Assembly (NCBI GenBank): GCA_964524025.1
Contig: CAZGBT010000003.1
Span: 602 to 64,601, forward strand
DNA from: an uncultured archaeon
Lineage (GTDB): Archaea; Aenigmatarchaeota; Aenigmatarchaeia; CG10238-14; EX4484-224
Direction: 5' to 3'
Length of the DNA: 64,000 nt
Notes under the pieces: model-generated
Seen by the model: only the letters and a program-made list of their open reading frames with translations
The model's database searches: none
What the model was told of the DNA's origin: nothing
Shown here: positions 9,181 to 34,959 of the stretch, one piece after another
Position numbering within the stretch: position 1 is the first letter of the stretch
Layout: each line of letters starts with the position of its first letter
Program-made: the position numbers and the translations under genes

Positions 9181-11979
9181 ATGGCAGAAGAATTTGAGAT
9201 TTGGGCTGAAAAATATAGACCGAAAACTTTTGATGAAATAATAAATCAGGAACATGTTATAGAAAGGGTTAAAAGTTTTGTTGAAGAAAAGAATCTTCCG
9301 CATATGCTTTTTGCTGGCCCGGCAGGTACTGGTAAAACAACAACAGCTCTTGTTATAGCAAGAACTCTTTATGGAGAAGGTTGGAGACAAAATGTTCTCG
9401 AGTTGAACGCAAGCGATGCAAGAGGCATAGATGTAATAAGAGGTAGGGTGAAGGATTTTGCAAGAACTAAAGCTATAGGAAAAGTTCCGTTTAAGCTTAT
9501 AATATTAGACGAGGCTGATGCTTTAACTAACGATGCTCAACAGGCTTTAAGAAGGACTATGGAGGATTTTAGTGATATAACGAGATTTATTTTAATTTGC
9601 ATATCACCAGATACCAAAGTTTATTTGCCTAACGAAATAGAAATACGCGCTGAGGATTTGCAAAATTTAGTTGGAAATCATGTTCTAGGTTTTGATTCAA
9701 TTTCTAACAAAATTAAAAAGTGCTATGTAAATGCCTATCTTGAATTAAATCCAAAAGAGATTGGTAAAAAGGTTTTGAGAATAAAAACCGACTGTGGAAG
9801 AGAATTGATTCTGACAGAAGATCATCCATTACTTACGCCCAACGGTTGGAAGTTAGCTGGTTTAATGAAGGAAGGAGAAGAAATTTTAGTTTTTCCTGCG
9901 CTTGAGGGAACATCGCCCCCGAAGGTTAAAAGAGTAATCTTAGACGAATTTGAATTTATTAAGAGATGTGCAAAAATAGAGAAAAAAAGGAACAACAAGA
10001 AGAGGTTTAGAGATTTAACAACCATTGAAAAGATTAGAATTGCTTTACTTATTAGAAAGTTGTATAAAGAAATTAAGAGAGGTCTAACTAAAAGGGAGTT
10101 TGAAGTATATAAGATAATTAAGAAAAGGCCATTAATATCTAGGAAAGAAATTCAAAAAATCGTAAAACTAAGTAGAGTAAGAGTTAATCAGATTTTAAAA
10201 TCGCTGGAAAAGAAGAATGCAATTAAAAGAGTTGTCGAGAAAAAAGTTCATAGATTTGTAGTACTTCGAGATTGCCTTAAACTTAGGAATTTACAGGATA
10301 TAAGAAAAATTGTAAAGAAAAAACTTGGAATTGAAATATCTTACAGCGAAGTTAAGCGTCTTGTAGAGAAAAGGTTGAGAACCAACTTGATTAAAATAAA
10401 AGAAAAATTGGAAGAGAAAGGATTACTACCACTAATCGACGCAAATGAAAAAGCATTAAAAATTGCAAGATTGTTTGGATTTATCCTGGGTGATGGCCAT
10501 TTAAGTTTACGACCCAAAAGAATTATTATTTCGTCTAAGCCCTACGTTCTTAAAGAAATTAAGAAAGAATTAAAATCTCTTGGGTTTAAATCTTCAAAAA
10601 TTTATAGAAAAAAACTTAAGAAAGGTTATACTTACTTCATTTTAGTCGACGACAGATCTCTTTATTATTTACTTTATGCGCTAGGAATGCCAATAGGAGA
10701 TAATACAACTAGCGAATTTTATTTGCCAGATTGGATCAAAAATGGATCGAAAATAATTAAAAGAGAGTTCTTGCGTGGATTTTTTGATGCAGAACTTTCA
10801 ACTCCTTATGTAAATAAACACTCCTTTTCTGCTCCCTACTTTGTGCAGCACAAAATTTCTAGATTAAAAGAGAACTTAAAGATCTTCGCTGAAGATATGA
10901 AAAAATTGTTAGAGGAATTCGGAATTGAATCGAAATATAGAATTATCTTACTAGATTACGTAAGGAAGAAAGATGGTGAAAGAGTATGTAAACTTGTTTT
11001 CTTAATAAGACCTAACCATAAAACAATTCTAAAACTTTACTCAAGAATAGGATTCTACTTCGAAAAGAAAAGAAGAATATTAGCCAGACAAATTTCTGAA
11101 TACTTAAGATTCAAGTTTAACTTACTTTCTAAAAGAGAGGCATTAAGAGAAAAAGTTGTACAACTTTGGTTAGAAGGATCCAGAAAAACTAAAATAGCGG
11201 CCTCACTCGGCGTTACTTTAGATTTCATTAGGGATAGCATAAGTGGAAAAAAGGTTAACGTAGCGTATTCCTCCTTTCCTACTTTTGATGAATGGATAAA
11301 GGAAAGGAAGTTTGCGGATGAAATAATAATAAATAAGATCGAAGAAATAGAAGAAGTCGATAAGGAGAAAGTTGTTGATATTCTAGCGATTCCTTATCAT
11401 TCATTCATAACTAACGGAATAATTTCTCATAATTGCAATTATTCGAGCAAAATTATAGATCCGATCCAATCAAGATGTGTTGTTTTTAGGTTTAGAGCTA
11501 TGGACGAGAAACATGTAAGGCAATTTATAAATAGGATTGTTAAGAAAGAAAAACTAAAAATAGACGAAAAAGCTATAAAAGCTATAATAGATATAGCTGA
11601 AGGTGATTTAAGAAGAGTTAGCAATTTATTGCAAGCTTCTGCAGCTTTAACAGACAAAATTACAGAAGATGTAGTATACGAGGTTGCGAGTCTAGCTAAA
11701 CCAACCGATATAAGGGAAATGATAGAATTTGCTATAAAAGGGGAATTTACTAAAGCTAGGGATAAATTAATTCAACTTTTAGTTAAACAAGGACTAGCTG
11801 GAGAGGATATAGTAAGACAAATTCATAAGGAAATTTATAAGCTTAAAATCCCTGATGAACTCAAAATTAAACTTGTTGAAAAAGTTGGAGAATTTGAATT
11901 TAGGATTTCTGAAGGTGGAGATCCATTCGTTCAACTAGCAGCTTTGTTAGCACATATTGCATTAGTTTGTAAAAAATGA
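9181..11979 (+). CDS. rfcS: Replication factor C small subunit precursor containing one intein
   Basis: The exteins together give about 320 aa with Walker [14 protein letters not shown], and RFILI|[15 protein letters not shown] once the intein is removed. Confidence 0.9.
9598..11433 (+). mobile_element. Intein (612 aa) with a LAGLIDADG homing-endonuclease domain and an inserted wHTH-like region
   Basis: Starts at Cys (CISPDTKV) and has block B LTEDHPLL. Ends in SHN followed by the +1 Cys of CNYSS. LAGLIDADG motifs are [10 protein letters not shown] and [10 protein letters not shown]. It sits in the conserved RFC box (RFIL.CNY). Confidence 0.85.
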
Positions 11980-18921: not shown

Positions 18922-19019
18922 TGGGCCCGGTGGGATTCGAACCCACGACCTGCGGTTTTTACGCTGTTCGAGCGACAGCCTTATAAGACCGCCGCTCTAG
19001 CCAGCTGAGCTACGGGCCC
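18922..19019 (-). tRNA. tRNA-Ile (anticodon UAU) with a ~24-nt intron at or next to position 37/38
   Basis: Acceptor GGGCCCG/CGGGCCC. Anticodon stem GCGGT/ACCGC with loop CTTATAA after removal of ~18958-18981. The intron has an inner helix GCUGU/ACAGC and a 4-bp helix UUAU/GUAA. Confidence 0.8.
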
Positions 19020-19995: not shown

Positions 19996-20709
19996 GTGAG
20001 ACTAAACAATGAATTGTGCTACCTTTGCGGATTTATAACTGGAGATGGTTACATATCAACAAAGGATAACAGAATCATCTTAACAGGAAATGCTACTCTA
20101 GAGGAGGAATTTTTTATGAATTATTTAAAACCGCTTATAGAAAGAAATCTACATGTAAACGTAAGGATAAAGAAAAATAACCAAACTTGTGTTCTCGAAT
20201 TTTATTCGAAAGAGGTTGTAGATTTCCTAGTTAAAGTTGGACTTAAAAGAGGCTCTAAAAGTAAGCAAGTTGAAATACCAAAAACTTTTCTTTCCTCCAC
20301 AAATTTCTTAAAAAGCTTCGTAGAAGGTTTTATGGATGCTGAATTCTGTTTCACTCTTAAGAAAAGATATAAGCAATTTCCTTATTATCCTTGCATAGAA
20401 TGTAATATAGCTAGTAAAAAGATCTGGAAACAATTGATTGATATCTTTAAGTCGTTTGGTTTAAAACCATCTTCCTGTGTTATTAAAGAATATGACAAAA
20501 GATTTCATAAATACTGGACCAAATACAGGATTGATTTAAATGGAGTAAACAATCTTATCAAGTTTTTAAAGTGCTTTCGTCCTAAAAATCCAAAGTTTAT
20601 CAAATTTCTTTCAGAACTAAGCGCAACTCTTAGAAAGAATAAGATAAAAAGAAAATCTTATTCCAAACTGCTGTGTATTAGTCAAAGGAATAGCGGGGGT
20701 GGGATTTGA
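19996..20709 (+). CDS. Free-standing double-motif LAGLIDADG homing-endonuclease-like protein
   Basis: GTG start. Motifs LCGFITGDGYI and VEGFMDAEFCF. The last ~19 nt run antisense into the initiator tRNA, so the true C-terminus is uncertain. Confidence 0.7.
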   Translation: MRLNNELCYLCGFITGDGYISTKDNRIILTGNATLEEEFFMNYLKPLIERNLHVNVRIKKNNQTCVLEFYSKEVVDFLVKVGLKRGSKSKQVEIPKTFLSSTNFLKSFVEGFMDAEFCFTLKKRYKQFPYYPCIECNIASKKIWKQLIDIFKSFGLKPSSCVIKEYDKRFHKYWTKYRIDLNGVNNLIKFLKCFRPKNPKFIKFLSELSATLRKNKIKRKSYSKLLCISQRNSGGGI

Positions 20710-23755: not shown

Positions 23756-24814
23756 ATGGCCCTAGAGGAACTTGAAGCAGAGATTTATTCGTGCACTGGC
23801 GACACAAGAATTAGTAGAGAAATCATAGCTCTTGCGAAGGCTTTACAAACCACTATTACGAAAAAGGTAATAAAATTGGCTAAAGATTTAAAGGAATATG
23901 AAGATGAATACGAAGAGCTGTATGAAGAGACGAGAGAAATTTTTACTAACCTTGCCAAAATACTTAGGTCGTATCCGCCTAAGATAGTGGAAAAGGTTTT
24001 GTCTTTTTTTGAGCAGATTATCGAGAACGACGATGTAGGAAATGCACCATCTGTTATAAGTGTGCTTACTAAATTATGTTCTAACAGTAGAATTGCTAAA
24101 ATCTTAAGAGAAGCACCAGACCATTGGATTGATGATTTATTGGGTGTCGCAAGGTATTACTGGCATTCAATAAGGTATTCCAAAGACCCAAATGAAGGTG
24201 TAAAAATACTCGAATCCTATTGGAGTTTACGAGAAATACTAGAAGATGAGGAGATGGGCGATTTGATTGAATTGATATTTCTAGAAACTAAAGATACAGA
24301 AGCCTGTAGAGAAACGTATGAACTTCTAAGAGAAGTTCCTCCCGATGAAAGGAAGAAGTTGATGTATGATTTCGAGTGTATAGCAAAGAGATCGGAGAGT
24401 GGTTATCTCATCAAGTTATACGCAAATACTTTAAGAAAATACATACCATTTCCCACCCTTCTTTGGCTTATTTCTTCTATTATAATGGACGAGTGTATAG
24501 AAGATGTATATAATATTCTTGGAGAATGCGAAGGGTGTATACTACATGAGAGTTATTTGGAAGCACTTGCACGACTTTATTCTAGTCCTACAGTTTATCA
24601 GATTCTTAAAAAGGCTCACTCCATCGACCAAGAGTTGGCGGAATACGTAGCTGAATTTGTCTGCAGATGTTATAAACGTGGTGGTTTTAAGGAAGCGGAT
24701 CGTAAGATCCTTTCCAAACTTATAAATGAGTTTCGCAAGGAACCAGAAGTGCTTAAGAGAGTTTTTAAGATTTTAAAGAGCACGGAAGAAGAGGAGGAAT
24801 TCGAAAAAGAGTAA
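23756..24814 (+). CDS. Hypothetical acidic helical protein (352 aa)
   Basis: ORF only, with an acidic C-terminal tail EEEEEFEKE. No family recognised. Confidence 0.5.
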   Translation: MALEELEAEIYSCTGDTRISREIIALAKALQTTITKKVIKLAKDLKEYEDEYEELYEETREIFTNLAKILRSYPPKIVEKVLSFFEQIIENDDVGNAPSVISVLTKLCSNSRIAKILREAPDHWIDDLLGVARYYWHSIRYSKDPNEGVKILESYWSLREILEDEEMGDLIELIFLETKDTEACRETYELLREVPPDERKKLMYDFECIAKRSESGYLIKLYANTLRKYIPFPTLLWLISSIIMDECIEDVYNILGECEGCILHESYLEALARLYSSPTVYQILKKAHSIDQELAEYVAEFVCRCYKRGGFKEADRKILSKLINEFRKEPEVLKRVFKILKSTEEEEEFEKE

Positions 24815-29113: not shown

Positions 29114-29964
29114 TTTTTCAAAACCTTCCTAATCAAACTAAATATTTTTATAAAAGTTGTTTCAGATTTTTCTTTTATAAATTTCATGATTCTTTCTTCT
29201 AACTTTATTCCTAAATTTTTCCTCATCACTGGGAAATTTGGAGAGAAGCTTAACCAGTCGAGAATGAATTTGTTGTTGTGTTTGATAAATCTGAATGCAA
29301 AATAGTCTAAGTCTGTTACTTTTTTAATTTTTCTCAAATTTTTTTCGATAATTTTCTTTTCACTCTTGCTAAAATCTTTAAGTACATTTCCTTCCTTTCT
29401 CTTATAATAAAAAGCTTCATTACCTATAGTTAAACCAAACACAGAAAAATCTGGTTTGATGGGTTTGTAAATAATTATTGGAAATCCCTTTTCCATTACT
29501 GAAATTACTTGCTTTAATGTCTTCTCATTTGTAACGAGGACTTTTTTATGAAGTTGTTTTACTATAAGCGGAAATTCAAATTTTTCTTTTATGCTTTCCA
29601 AACCTGCAGTGGAAAATAAAGAATAATGCTCCCTTACCTCAATTCCACTAGTTTTTAAAATTTGGAAGATTTGATTAGTAGACAAAAGAAGATATTGGCT
29701 TGGAGAGAATGGCAAAACTTTGTGGTTTAGCATTCTAACTAGAGTATAAAACATTTCCCTATTCCTATTAGTTGGAACTGGAAATATGCATTCGTAATCG
29801 CTAATTCTTTCTCCATCATAGCTAACCTCCATTTTTCCTTTTATTTCAAACCTAACCCTATCTATTGGACAATAAATAACCTTTTCAAAATATTTTTTAG
29901 CAGCCTTTACTAATCCTTCATCTTTCTCTTTTCTAATAGGATCCCCTACAATTGCTATTTTCAT
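29110..29964 (-). CDS. Divergent ATP-grasp-like paralogue, probably lacking the Gly-rich loop
   Basis: Same length and layout as the RimK-like neighbour (FPLIVKQLHKKVLV in place of VVLKLIYGSLGRGV). 4-nt overlaps on both sides. Confidence 0.4.
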   Translation of the reverse strand: MKIAIVGDPIRKEKDEGLVKAAKKYFEKVIYCPIDRVRFEIKGKMEVSYDGERISDYECIFPVPTNRNREMFYTLVRMLNHKVLPFSPSQYLLLSTNQIFQILKTSGIEVREHYSLFSTAGLESIKEKFEFPLIVKQLHKKVLVTNEKTLKQVISVMEKGFPIIIYKPIKPDFSVFGLTIGNEAFYYKRKEGNVLKDFSKSEKKIIEKNLRKIKKVTDLDYFAFRFIKHNNKFILDWLSFSPNFPVMRKNLGIKLEERIMKFIKEKSETTFIKIFSLIRKVLKK

Positions 29965-31520
29965 CCTAAAACCCTTTCTATAACTCCTATACCTTTAGTT
30001 TTACCTTCTCTGAAAACAAACCTATCGCCAGTTCTTACAAACTGTGGGTTATATTTAAACCTTATTCTAACTTTTCCGCTTTCTCCCATCTTCAAATATT
30101 TTTTATCTATTAAATGAAAAATTCCTGTCTCACTTATTGTGTTACAATGAATTACAGGTTCGTAACCATTTTTGATTCTAGTAGGGTGACTTAAAACTAA
30201 AACTTCTGCAATAAATTCCCTTACAGCCTTAGGTTTAAGAGAGGGGTCGCATAAAATCATCCCTCTTCTTACTTTATCAGCTTTTACTCCTTTTATCGCA
30301 ATCCCAACTATAAAGCCAGCATCTGCTTCTTTTAATCTATAATAGTGCATCTCTATACTTTTTACCTTTACTCTTTTGAAATTTCCAGTCTTATCAGGAC
30401 CTATAAGCATTAGATCACCAACTTTTATTCTACCCTGCTTTATTGCACCAGAAACTACAGTTCCCACACCTTCTATGTTGTAAATTTTATCTATATACAT
30501 CAAGAAAGGTTTATTGCTTTCTTTCTTTCTTTTCGGCAGTTTTAGGAAAAATTTATAGAGCAAGTCAAAACCTGTAAATTTTTTTGCAGAAGTTCTAAAG
30601 ATTGGGACTACAACTTCTAACTTATCGACAACTACATCTATATCCTTTTCGTTTTTAATAGGATAAGGAATCTTTCCAACTTTTTTAAGCAAGTTGGATA
30701 TTTCATCTTCTACAACTTCAACTTTCTTTTTGTTTACAAGATCTGTTTTTGTTATACATACTACAACCGGGACTTTGGAAGCTAACAACAAACCCAAATG
30801 CTCTTTAGTTATATGAGTGACTCCATCGTCTGCCGCTACAACCACAATTCCATAATCTATTTCTTGACCAACTATGCCTCTTATGGTAGTTCTTAACCAA
30901 GGTTCGTGACCTACTGTATCAACAAAACTTATTAATTTTTCTGCATTTTCAACAATCCTTTCCTTTTCCTTTTTGCTTAAGGGATTCTCAAAGAAAATGG
31001 GCTTTCCAGCTTTAAAACCTAAAATTGCATGATGCAAATCTGCTGATAATCCACGCTCAATCTCGTGGGGCAAAACATTGAGATAAAGCCAAGCTTTCTT
31101 TTCCTTATCAGGCTTTCCTGTTATTAGAGTTCCTATTAAAGTGGATTTGCCATGACTTACATGACCACAAACAGCTATAACTATATTTTCTATTTCCTTT
31201 TTTCCAACCCTTCTTACAACAATTTTTCCTATTAACTTTCCATCTTCATAAAATTTTTCAACCTTAGCTATTTCTGCGCTACATTCTTTTGCTATATTTT
31301 CTAAAACTCTAACCGTTTCTGAAAATTCTAGTTCACTTAAACCTCTTATTTCCCCCGAATCCTTAACTCCTATTATATAAACAGCTATTCCGTTACCTAC
31401 TTCAAGCAAATATCTCATTTGGGCAGCTAAATGTTGCTTTCTTTCCTCTTTTAAATGATAATCTGCTTTAAGTATTTCCTTAAATTCTATATTCTTATTC
31501 TCTTTCTTTGGTATCTTCAT
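29961..31520 (-). CDS. EF-Tu/EF-1A-like translational-type GTPase (GTPBP1-like) with a ~110-aa N-terminal extension
   Basis: G1 GHVSHGKST, G3 DTVGHE and G4 TKTD, followed by beta-barrel domains II and III. Confidence 0.8.
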   Translation of the reverse strand: MKIPKKENKNIEFKEILKADYHLKEERKQHLAAQMRYLLEVGNGIAVYIIGVKDSGEIRGLSELEFSETVRVLENIAKECSAEIAKVEKFYEDGKLIGKIVVRRVGKKEIENIVIAVCGHVSHGKSTLIGTLITGKPDKEKKAWLYLNVLPHEIERGLSADLHHAILGFKAGKPIFFENPLSKKEKERIVENAEKLISFVDTVGHEPWLRTTIRGIVGQEIDYGIVVVAADDGVTHITKEHLGLLLASKVPVVVCITKTDLVNKKKVEVVEDEISNLLKKVGKIPYPIKNEKDIDVVVDKLEVVVPIFRTSAKKFTGFDLLYKFFLKLPKRKKESNKPFLMYIDKIYNIEGVGTVVSGAIKQGRIKVGDLMLIGPDKTGNFKRVKVKSIEMHYYRLKEADAGFIVGIAIKGVKADKVRRGMILCDPSLKPKAVREFIAEVLVLSHPTRIKNGYEPVIHCNTISETGIFHLIDKKYLKMGESGKVRIRFKYNPQFVRTGDRFVFREGKTKGIGVIERVLG

Positions 31521-33307: not shown

Positions 33308-33718
33308 ATGGCAAGTTTTAAGTTTGTAGTAAGCGATCCTGAAACTAGAAAAGCTTATCAAATAGAAATAGAACAAGAAAAGGCAGCTCATTTAGTTGGT
33401 AAAAAAATTGGAGATGAATTCGATGCAACTTTTTTAGGTTTACCTGGTTACGTTTTAAAGATTACTGGAGGTACGGATAAAGATGGTTTTCCCATGCATC
33501 CTAGCGTTCACGGGCCTGGGAGGAAAAGAGTTCTTTTATCAGGACCTCCCGGATTCCATCCAAAACATAAAGGTCAAAGGAAAAGAAAAACGGTTAGAGG
33601 AAATACTATTTCTTTTGATATAGTGCAGATTAATTGTAAAATAGTTAAAAAAGGCGAAAAGCCTATAGAAGAGCTTATTCCAAAAAAAGAAAAGAAGGAA
33701 GGAGGTGAAGAAAAATAG
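33308..33718 (+). CDS. rps6e: 30S ribosomal protein S6e
   Basis: [21 protein letters not shown]..., GTDKDGFPM and the basic [11 protein letters not shown]. Confidence 0.9.
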
Positions 33719-34959
33719 ATCCAAGGTTAATTCCTGAGTGCAATATAGGAATGGTCGGACTTTGATGTAGCAAATTTGCTACATCAACCGAAAACGTAAG
33801 TCATGGAAAGACTACTTTAACCGAAGCTATAACTGGAATTTGCACTTTAAGGCATTCTGAAGAATTAAAAAGGGGTATAACCATTAGATTAGGATATGCT
33901 GATGCTACTATCTACAAATGTTTAAACTGCGGAAGGTATTGTACACACCCTAAATGTCCTTATTGTTTTAGCGATACAGAACCGCAAAGGACCGTTAGCT
34001 TTGTAGACGCTCCTGGACATGAAACTTTGATGGCTACTGTTCTAACAGGGACTGCAATAATGGATGGTGCAATACTAGTAATAGCTGCTAACGAAAAATG
34101 TCCACAGCCACAAACTAGAGAGCATCTTAAGGCTTTAGAAGTAGCTGGGATTAAAAATGTCATAGTAGTTCAGAATAAGATAGACTTAGTAACAAAAGAA
34201 GAAGCCATAAAAAATTATGAGGAAATAAAGGAATTTTTAAAAGGAACTTCTATAGAAAATGCTCCTATTATACCTATTTCAGCGCAAAAAAGGATTAATA
34301 TAGATGTCGTTTTAGAAGCAATTCAAAAATATATACCAACGCCTAAAAGAAAGGAAAAAGCTGATCCTTTAATGCTGGTTGCGAGAAGTTTTGACATAAA
34401 CAAGCCTGGGACGCCTGTGGAAAAAATTAAAGGAGGTGTTTTAGGAGGTTCTGTAATAAGAGGAAAGTTTAAAATTGGCGATGAAATTGAGATAAGACCA
34501 GGAATAAAAGTTGGTGAGAAATACAAAAGCATTAAGACAAAAATAGAAGGATTGCAGAAAGCTGGAAAAAATCTTGAAGAAGCTGGACCTGGTGGCTTGT
34601 TGGGTTTGCTTACTCAGCTTGACCCCTATTTAACTAAAGCTGATAAGCTAGCTGGCTCGGTTATTGGTTTACCTGAAAAGCTGCCAGATGTGTTATATGA
34701 ATTAAACTTAAAGGTAACACTGCTTGAAAGAATAGTAGGATTTGAGAAAATACTAGAAGTCGACCCTATTAAGGTTAACGAAGTTTTATTAATTAATGCT
34801 TGGACTGCTAAAAGCGTTGGTATAGTTACTTCAGTAAAAGGAGATGAAGTTAGACTAAAATTAAAACTACCAGTATGTATAGAAAAAAATCAAAGAGTTG
34901 TAATTTCTAGGCAGATTGCTGGAAGGTGGAGGCTAATAGGTTATGGAATTGTAGCCTAG
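33715..34959 (+). CDS. eif2g: Translation initiation factor aIF2 gamma, interrupted by a 33-nt insert with an in-frame TGA; start codon uncertain
   Basis: Sequence reads PECNIGMVG / insert / [14 protein letters not shown]...[10 protein letters not shown], then zinc knuckle CLNCG..CPYC, DAPGHE, NKID, and a C-terminal [15 protein letters not shown] single frame runs 33709-34959 apart from the TGA at 33763-33765. There is no in-frame ATG, GTG or TTG upstream of the beta-1 strand. Confidence 0.85.
33761..33793 (+). other. Candidate BHB-type (relaxed) mini-intron inside the aIF2-gamma mRNA
   Basis: A 4-bp helix UCGG(33755-58)/CCGA(33788-91) is followed by a 3-nt bulge ACU (33759-61) and an inner helix formed by the 26-nt perfect palindrome (33762-87). 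AAA (33792-94) follows on the 3' strand. Cutting after the 2nd nucleotide of each bulge removes 33 nt and yields GGA-CAC-GUA, giving GHVSHGKTT. Confidence 0.55.

Follow-up and report, generated by a model that had tools for sequence, protein, structure and literature searches.

A predicted bulge-helix-bulge mini-intron in the P-loop codons of aIF2-gamma from an uncultured aenigmatarchaeon, with related inserts in other Aenigmatarchaeota

The aIF2-gamma gene and its 33-nt insert

We analyzed a stretch of 64,000 nucleotides (nt) from a metagenome-assembled genome of an uncultured archaeon of the phylum Aenigmatarchaeota (GenBank assembly GCA_964524025.1, contig CAZGBT010000003.1, positions 602 to 64,601), hereafter the window, in which the gene for the translation initiation GTPase aIF2-gamma contains an in-frame TGA within the codons for its P-loop. 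An earlier reading made from the letters alone (the sequence-only reading) had attributed this stop to a 33-nt intron of the bulge-helix-bulge (BHB) type, and on recheck the frame, the TGA, the palindrome, and the coordinates and sequences of the UCGG, ACU, CCGA, and AAA elements were all correct. The frame opens at 33709, preceded by a TGA at 33706-08, and the TGA at 33763-65 is its sole break before the stop at 34957-59. The spliced product of 404 amino acids (aa) matches the NCBIfam aIF2-gamma equivalog over its full length (E = 1e-187). The gene and the insert comprise the following features.

33709 to 33760, + strand: aIF2-gamma exon 1, which aligns with the N-termini of orthologues; its last base, C33760, is the first base of the P-loop His codon
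33751 to 33753, + strand: AUG, 5' strand of a tentative outer helix, which would pair with CGU at 33795-97 and leave G33754 opposite the AAA bulge
33755 to 33758, + strand: UCGG in exon 1, 5' strand of the central BHB helix, paired with 33788-91 in the minimum-free-energy fold
33759 to 33761, + strand: ACU, 5' bulge, unpaired in the minimum-free-energy fold, with a predicted cut between C33760 and U33761
33761 to 33793, + strand: putative mini-intron of 33 nt, UUUGAUGUAGCAAAUUUGCUACAUCAACCGAAA, a 33-nt gap relative to intron-less orthologues that holds the in-frame TGA
33762 to 33787, + strand: intron hairpin, a perfect 26-nt palindrome (11 bp and a 4-nt loop) stacked on the central helix
33788 to 33791, + strand: CCGA at the 3' end of the intron, 3' strand of the central BHB helix, paired with UCGG
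33792 to 33794, + strand: AAA, 3' bulge, unpaired in the fold, with a predicted cut between A33793 and A33794
33794 to 34959, + strand: aIF2-gamma exon 2, starting with the AC of the His codon and ending with the TAG stop
33795 to 33797, + strand: CGU, 3' strand of the tentative outer helix, as paired in the core alignment described below

Positions 33735-33815 were folded with RNAfold, a check that the sequence-only reading had proposed, and the arrangement it had described was recovered: the helix has 4 bp, the bulge 3 nt, and the hairpin 11 bp. At -22 kcal/mol (z = -3.8), the stability of this fold was matched by none of 200 shuffled sequences. The palindrome, TTGATGTAGCAAATTTGCTACATCAA, is present in one copy in the window, and no match to it was found in 100 shuffles even when 3 mismatches were allowed. 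Cuts after the second nucleotide of each bulge would restore the P-loop (NIGMVGHVSHGKTT): as had been proposed, excision of 33761-33793 leaves GGA CAC GUA AGU CAU GGA AAG, encoding GHVSHGK, and this is the only deletion that recreates the His codon (C/AC, with the slash marking the junction). In a MAFFT alignment with the closest intron-less orthologues, which are 80% identical (loci L155 and L156), the gap corresponds exactly to 33761-33793. The coincidence of the cleavage rule with this gap indicates that the structure-predicted splice sites and the homology-defined boundaries agree to the nucleotide. The computationally predicted exon junction in the spliced RNA is GGUCGGAC/ACGUAAGU, and the predicted peptide spanning it is ...NIGMVGHVSHGK. 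Orthologues both closer and more distant read NIGM[VL]GHVSHGKTT, and the paralogous GTPase at 29961-31520 was verified to read GHVSHGKST.

A lax version of the motif (4-bp helix, 3-nt bulge, stem of at least 4 bp) yields 2211 hits on the two strands of the window. Because such motifs are so common, shape alone is no proof, and the significance of the element rests on its stem (11-12 bp), on the codon repair, and on recurrence in relatives. In a window-wide scan for other BHB-like inserts that would repair broken open reading frames (ORFs), only the aIF2-gamma element was recovered, the remaining hits lying at ordinary gene boundaries or starts. The sequence-only reading had also called for a search for further inserts of this kind in coding sequences, and cases of the kind were found in aIF5B of relatives.

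Inserts at the same codon in other Aenigmatarchaeota

Relatives were obtained from scans of genome and metagenome collections derived from the JGI, ENA, Logan, and NCBI pipelines, and most of them encode an uninterrupted GH[VI]xHGK. These scans also placed the source organism within the Aenigmatarchaeota (DPANN). Besides the window, seven versions of aIF2-gamma and one of its paralogue aIF5B are interrupted at this His codon by other inserts, 21-34 nt in length. By locus, the insert lengths are as follows.

Window (with L001 and L002), aIF2-gamma: 33 nt (32 nt in L001)
L081 and L085, aIF2-gamma: 21 nt
L014, aIF2-gamma: 24 nt
L162, aIF2-gamma: 30 nt
L157/L158, aIF2-gamma: 31 nt
L161, aIF2-gamma: 31 nt
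L108/L109, aIF2-gamma: 34 nt
L159, aIF2-gamma: 34 nt
L045, aIF5B: 32 nt

The insert length is not a multiple of three in five of the nine variants, and the other four contain an in-frame stop, indicating that none can be translated through. All variants have in common the core [G/C]TCGG-AC-N, hairpin, CCGA-A-N-A, with the His codon split as C/A[C/U], and their hairpins differ in sequence and length. The minimum-free-energy folds of all nine share one architecture, a helix of 4 bp followed by a 3-nt bulge and a hairpin, and cleavage between the second and third bulge nucleotides restores the mature sequence computationally in every other variant as well. Among 163 loci, the core pattern was confined to GTPase P-loops. 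Some carriers were recognized from called proteins that start in or just past the intron ('LTENVDHGK', 'MVRSDIEHAIACLTENVDHGK'), and in a neighbor-joining tree the carriers from the first two scans are spread over three or more separate clades, all of which have sister sequences that lack an intron. The intron in the window belongs to a family located at the same codon in several lineages of Aenigmatarchaeota and in the paralogue aIF5B.

To compare pairing among the variants, a core alignment of nine sequences was assembled from 12 nt of exon on each side, the helix, the bulges, and the first and last 6 nt of the hairpins. Standard pairs fill 94% of its cells, compared with 20-40% when the partners are slid by 1-3 columns, and two-sided changes are found at three hairpin pairs (G-C/A-U, A-U/C-G/G-C, and G-C/U-A/A-U). 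None of 500 shuffles reached the observed pairing or covariation score; a seven-sequence version was also run. The comparison with orthologues that the sequence-only reading had suggested showed both that the 33 nt are absent from L155 and L156 and that compensatory changes have accumulated in the hairpins of relatives. The UCGG/CCGA central helix is invariant and paired in all nine variants. The exon side is constrained all the same: at the helix position, every one of the 9 intron variants has TCGG, whereas among 95 distinct contexts that lack an intron it is found in only 21 (Fisher p = 5e-6; 9e-4 with 5 lineages counted as independent). The columns of the tentative outer helix pair in 89% of cells across the nine variants, with changes that are one-sided only. 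For four of the relatives, RNAfold also predicts an outer helix next to the 3' bulge, which is a clean 2-bp CG/CG helix in L085 and comprises 3 bp plus one opposed nucleotide in L108, L159, and L161.

Comparison of L081 and L085, both intron-bearing, over the spliced frame identified 57 differences, 47 synonymous and 10 non-synonymous, for a ratio of non-synonymous to synonymous substitution rates (dN/dS) of 0.056, and this pair of genes is under strong purifying selection. The introns of the two are alike except at the tip of the hairpin. No stop interrupts the spliced frame of L014 for 985 aa, a length that includes an intein of ~580 aa inserted five codons past the intron site, so that the same P-loop (CAZPID010000013.1, 1259-3010) holds both the 24-nt BHB insert and a large intein (GHVSHGK/CISLDE...LLHN/TTL).

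The ribosomal protein S6e encoded directly upstream of aIF2-gamma in the window is also present in two other assemblies. These independent assemblies, ENA ERZ27248328 and Logan SRR7051321, were reached via this protein; both contain the insert and match the window at 99.9% identity across 10-11.5 kb. In L001, the insert is 32 nt long, with one A absent from the hairpin loop, a change that would shift the frame if translated. L001 also lacks one G at window position 24683, which alters the C-terminus of the ORF at 23756-24814 (352 aa vs 322 aa) and is either a strain variant or an assembly error. Given this second 1-nt indel in a coding region, we place little weight on the loop deletion. L002 differs from the window by 8 substitutions in 35 nt at 34821-34855, the 3' end of aIF2-gamma, and is elsewhere 99.9% identical; this cluster looks like a short recombination tract.

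The aIF5B insert in L045 (JAHIEG010000008.1, 28-66) is of the same type and interrupts the His codon (CTCGGAC/ATTAGATTAAGTTTATGCTTATTTAACCGAA/ATGTT), and the spliced ORF encodes 570 aa. The database entry for this protein, MBU3904916.1, is a truncated form beginning MLDKVRE, and the aIF2-gamma gene of the same genome has no intron. An unrelated insert of 19 nt is located in aIF5B at L163 (ERZ27247709 k141_670558, ~1455-1500), where it interrupts the Lys codon of GHSDHGK (GGA A/TCTGCTGAGGCAGCCGTTT/AG ACC), four codons past the His-codon site of aIF2-gamma and aIF5B. This insert displays perfect BHB geometry, with an AUGG/CCGU helix, bulges AAU and UUA, and the hairpin CUGC-UGAG-GCAG. L163 and L159 are on one 181-kb contig, indicating that both aIF2-gamma and aIF5B of one genome contain introns. 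Further aIF5B proteins (P0319, P0320, P0343, P0352, and P0349) resemble intron-interrupted products: P0319 begins MCLCSDIEQDSCLTEYVDHGK, implying a 3' bulge AUA, others begin LLDKIRG, and P0349 is truncated. Several database aIF5B proteins likewise start 'LLDKIRG' or read through an intron ('...SDIEQDSCLTEYVDHGK'). Judged from these sequences, the P-loop codons of translational GTPases appear to be a recurrent site of BHB mini-introns in Aenigmatarchaeota.

Gene context, splicing machinery, and competing explanations

The following neighboring and splicing-related genes of the window bear on the interpretation of the insert.

33308 to 33718, + strand: ribosomal protein S6e gene, upstream neighbor (NCBIfam S6e, E = 1e-56)
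7 to 1002, + strand: RtcB RNA ligase, C-terminal 331 aa, running off the start of the window (Pfam RtcB, E = 2.5e-131)
1988 to 2407, - strand: archease, cofactor of RtcB (Pfam Archease, E = 5.6e-51)
18922 to 19019, - strand: tRNA-Ile(UAU) with a 24-nt BHB intron (Rfam tRNA, 63.6 bits, 25-nt anticodon-loop insertion)

The gene order in the window, S6e, aIF2-gamma, PIN, Rpb7, (Spt4), TIM, is the conserved context of aIF2-gamma orthologues. No ATG, GTG, or TTG is present in the aIF2-gamma frame between the TGA at 33706-08 and the Met codon at 33751-53, and the 13 conserved N-terminal residues are still encoded in frame. The start is probably AUA at 33715-17, 6 nt past the Shine-Dalgarno-like GGAGGUGA; this codon overlaps the S6e stop (AUAG), a TAG at 33716-18 that lies across the probable start region. 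The 80%-identical relatives have instead a 40-nt spacer and a GTG start. Gene callers give a truncated product for the window gene (309 of 404 aa), and the gene calls in several relatives (P0003, P0004, and P0040) likewise start at the internal Met. Exact-protein look-ups of the Rpb7-like neighbor and of the truncated aIF2-gamma product, P0010, returned no match, and the protein collection contained no full-length spliced product at 100% identity. A protein search revealed no second copy of aIF2-gamma; the best other matches were 80% identical and represent the syntenic orthologous locus of another population.

The tRNA-Ile(UAU) gene, which was missed by ARAGORN and detected by Rfam, provides a comparison within the same genome. 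Its intron, the geometry of which was worked out manually from the sequence, has a UUAU/GUAA helix, a 5' bulge AAG, an abutting 5-bp hairpin, and a 3' AAA opposite 2 unpaired nucleotides. The 3' splice site is within a 2x3 internal loop, making the motif relaxed, and cutting between the second and third bulge nucleotides would yield the correct anticodon loop, CUUAUAA. The tRNA-Ile intron supports the interpretation of the aIF2-gamma insert as a positive control with the same relaxed layout. A free-standing ORF with a LAGLIDADG-like domain (19996-20709, + strand) adjoins tRNA genes of the window.

Cleavage of BHB motifs takes place between the second and third bulge residues (PMC2738675), and a loop insertion, L3, in the splicing endonucleases (EndAs) of DPANN archaea has been linked to the occurrence of disrupted tRNA genes (PMC5829648). 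In the proposed mechanism, the 4-bp central helix would join the UCGG at the end of exon 1 to the CCGA at the intron's 3' end, and the intron's own hairpin would close the 5' bulge ACU. The 3' cut would fall in the AAA right after the central helix, closed at most by a weak 3-bp outer helix. EndA would cleave each bulge between nucleotides two and three, and RtcB with archease would ligate the exons, recreating the His codon CAC and a continuous GHVSHGKTT P-loop. That both ligation components are encoded in the window, as the sequence-only reading had stated, was borne out by the Pfam matches, that of RtcB being partial. Based on the data presented above, we assign a probability of roughly 85% to removal of the aIF2-gamma insert by EndA-type splicing and RtcB/archease ligation. 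Recurrence, covariation, and purifying selection have all added support to the BHB interpretation since it was put forward from the sequence.

Several points weigh against this interpretation. The outer helix modeled for the window is weak, comprising at best 3 bp including one G-U with G33754 unpaired; it is absent from the RNAfold prediction and is the weakest among the versions. As the 3' bulge thus has no convincing closing helix in the window, the motif is counted as being of the relaxed type. The sequence-only reading had named the missing outer helix as its weak point, and this is resolved in part: RNAfold predicts no such helix for the window, but one of 3 bp is possible, and such helices are clearer in relatives. 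The central helix, being invariant, contributes no covariation signal of its own, and the core alignment is hand-trimmed, its anchors being the TCGG and CCGA strings and not the counted pairs. The lack of a canonical start upstream of the P-loop, taken alone, looks like decay, and an assembly error may account for the single nucleotide missing from the hairpin loop in L001. Pfam did not find EndA in the 40 ORFs scanned, all from the window, so that both the presence and the type of EndA are a matter of inference, its presence following from the intron-bearing tRNA-Ile. We infer that an EndA accepting the relaxed motif is encoded elsewhere in the genome and that splicing occurs. More generally, the case is built on sequence comparison.

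Removal at the RNA level by other means, that is, by another pair of nuclease and ligase or in another cleavage register, would accommodate both the failure to find EndA in the scanned ORFs and the 3' site of the window version, for which a convincing closing helix is lacking. We nevertheless consider it quite unlikely, given that the EndA rule fits both sites in all nine variants as well as in the unrelated 19-nt insert of L163, and that the genuine tRNA intron in the window shares the relaxed layout. We also know of no other archaeal system that excises short hairpins of this geometry. An alternative in which the insert remains in the mRNA and is passed by the ribosome, either by programmed bypassing as for phage T4 gene 60 or by readthrough, draws some plausibility from the Gly codon GGA at 33757-59, which is followed one codon later by a stop in a strong hairpin, and from the insert in the window being in frame (33 nt). 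In gene 60, the hairpin and stop codon come after the take-off codon, and the resemblance is superficial. The His codon is split C/AC, so that neither a hop nor readthrough could yield the His found at that position in all intron-less aIF2-gamma examined; landing beside the insert would instead produce GNVSHGK, and the 3' end of the insert (CCGAAAACG) offers neither GGA nor any other GGN codon for landing. Readthrough is excluded for the family by the five of nine variant lengths that are not multiples of three and by the stops in the rest, and bypassing would give no reason for a UCGG/CCGA pairing that never varies and keeps a fixed distance to either boundary. We regard ribosomal passage of either kind as very improbable.

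Equally improbable is a recent pseudogene, in which a palindromic mobile or slippage insertion would have broken aIF2-gamma, with loss of the start codon and supply of the function by another copy. The in-frame stop, the missing canonical start upstream, and the report by gene callers of just a truncated 309-aa product would all be expected of such a gene. However, the remaining 388 codons are intact and give a full-length equivalog score, the S6e, aIF2-gamma, PIN, Rpb7 context is conserved, and the protein search showed no second copy. Moreover, equivalent inserts persist in several diverged lineages, with the low dN/dS of 0.056 between two carriers and a 985-aa open frame including an intein in L014, and the palindrome is single-copy in the window with no target-site duplication. 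It is also true that perfect palindromes can arise from assembly errors, for example as chimeras, and that the window derives from a metagenome-assembled genome; yet three independent assemblies, made from different samples, contain the insert, and homologous inserts are found in unrelated metagenomes from the JGI, ENA, Logan, and NCBI pipelines, making an assembly or sequencing artifact extremely unlikely. Three other identities were rejected: an intein, since the insert is 11 codons including a TGA and other variants shift the frame; an element resembling a miniature inverted-repeat transposable element, since just one copy was found in the 64 kb with up to 3 mismatches allowed and the flanks are not duplicated; and the cbf5 intron itself, the host gene being aIF2-gamma and the host organism a member of the Aenigmatarchaeota. 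Splicing by EndA with ligation by RtcB and archease is thus the explanation we favor.

Relation to known introns and implications

BHB introns inside archaeal coding sequences have so far been reported, within the literature searched, only for cbf5, in agreement with what the sequence-only reading had stated, to which the BHB intron in the 5' untranslated region of Haloferax volcanii HVO_1309 (Schwarz et al. 2020, PMC7714728) should be added. Beyond these two, the papers searched yielded nothing relevant on introns in aIF2 or in DPANN mRNAs. The cbf5 mRNA introns of Crenarchaeota have relaxed motifs and are 16-44 nt long (Watanabe et al. 2002; Yokobori et al. 2009, PMC2738675). Like them, the inserts described here (21-34 nt) are short, lie in coding sequence, form a relaxed BHB between exon and intron with the same predicted cleavage rule, combine a variable interior with a conserved BHB core, and are too short for a homing endonuclease. 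Both are also patchily present among relatives, implying gain and loss. In contrast with cbf5, which encodes a pseudouridine synthase, the hosts here are the initiation GTPases aIF2-gamma and aIF5B; the phylum is Aenigmatarchaeota (DPANN) rather than Crenarchaeota with a heterotetramer EndA; and the insertion is in the P-loop, inside an invariant His codon. Splicing of cbf5 has been shown experimentally, whereas that of aIF2-gamma is predicted from sequence. In its predicted workings, the aIF2-gamma intron resembles that of cbf5, from which it is set apart by host genes, phylum, and site.

The inserts share with archaeal tRNA BHB introns the geometry of a 4-bp helix and 3-nt bulges and the cleavage rule, and the tRNA-Ile of the window further resembles the aIF2-gamma insert in a hairpin that abuts the central helix, with unpaired nucleotides facing the AAA of the 3' site. 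They differ in that the substrate is an mRNA, with no tRNA body aiding recognition and an exon helix constrained by codons (Val/Leu-Gly). As predicted for the inserts, the splicing endonuclease acts on an mRNA and not on tRNA or rRNA in the case of HVO_1309, but that intron is in an untranslated leader, where no reading frame is interrupted, and its host is euryarchaeal. A further parallel is found in HAC1 and XBP1 (IRE1 with tRNA ligase or RtcB), where a structure-recognizing endonuclease removes a short coding intron, a tRNA-splicing ligase joins the exons, and removal alters the frame or product, although the IRE1 endonuclease and its stem-loop motif differ and that splicing is stress-regulated. 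Inteins in GTPase and ATPase P-loops are similar as selfish insertions at a highly conserved catalytic motif, and the intein of L014 is five codons from the intron site; however, inteins are excised from the translated protein, while the inserts here contain stops or frameshifts and are far too short. An intein is also present in the replication factor C small subunit of the window (9181-11979, + strand; Pfam Intein_splicing, residues 149-751 of 932 aa).

For more than 20 years, cbf5 of Crenarchaeota has been the only reported archaeal case of an intron inside a protein-coding sequence, and two essential initiation factors in archaea of another superphylum, DPANN, would now join this class. 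The ten distinct intron versions provide comparative support for mRNA splicing by the tRNA endonuclease pathway as a recurrent process, not a one-off. The variants also represent natural substrates for studying DPANN endonuclease specificity and the gain, loss, and movement of BHB introns between paralogues. There is a practical consequence as well. Gene callers truncate such genes (309 of 404 aa for aIF2-gamma, and a start at 'MLDK...' for aIF5B), and aIF2-gamma (TIGR03680) serves as an archaeal marker gene; for these reasons, P-loop introns could distort completeness estimates, marker-gene phylogenies, and claims of 'missing genes' for DPANN genomes.

The presence of the same intron type in the same His codon of the paralogues aIF2-gamma and aIF5B, together with the intron in L163, raises the possibility, which we advance tentatively and rate at somewhat less than even odds, that the inserts constitute a mobile BHB mini-intron family specifically colonizing the P-loop-coding sequence of translational GTPases in Aenigmatarchaeota. 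If so, spread between paralogues would require reverse splicing or short-tract gene conversion across exon sequence that is nearly identical in the two (...CUCGGAC/AYGU...), followed by repeated loss. The production of two essential initiation factors would then depend on the tRNA-splicing machinery, and this dependence could act as a regulatory or quality-control link.

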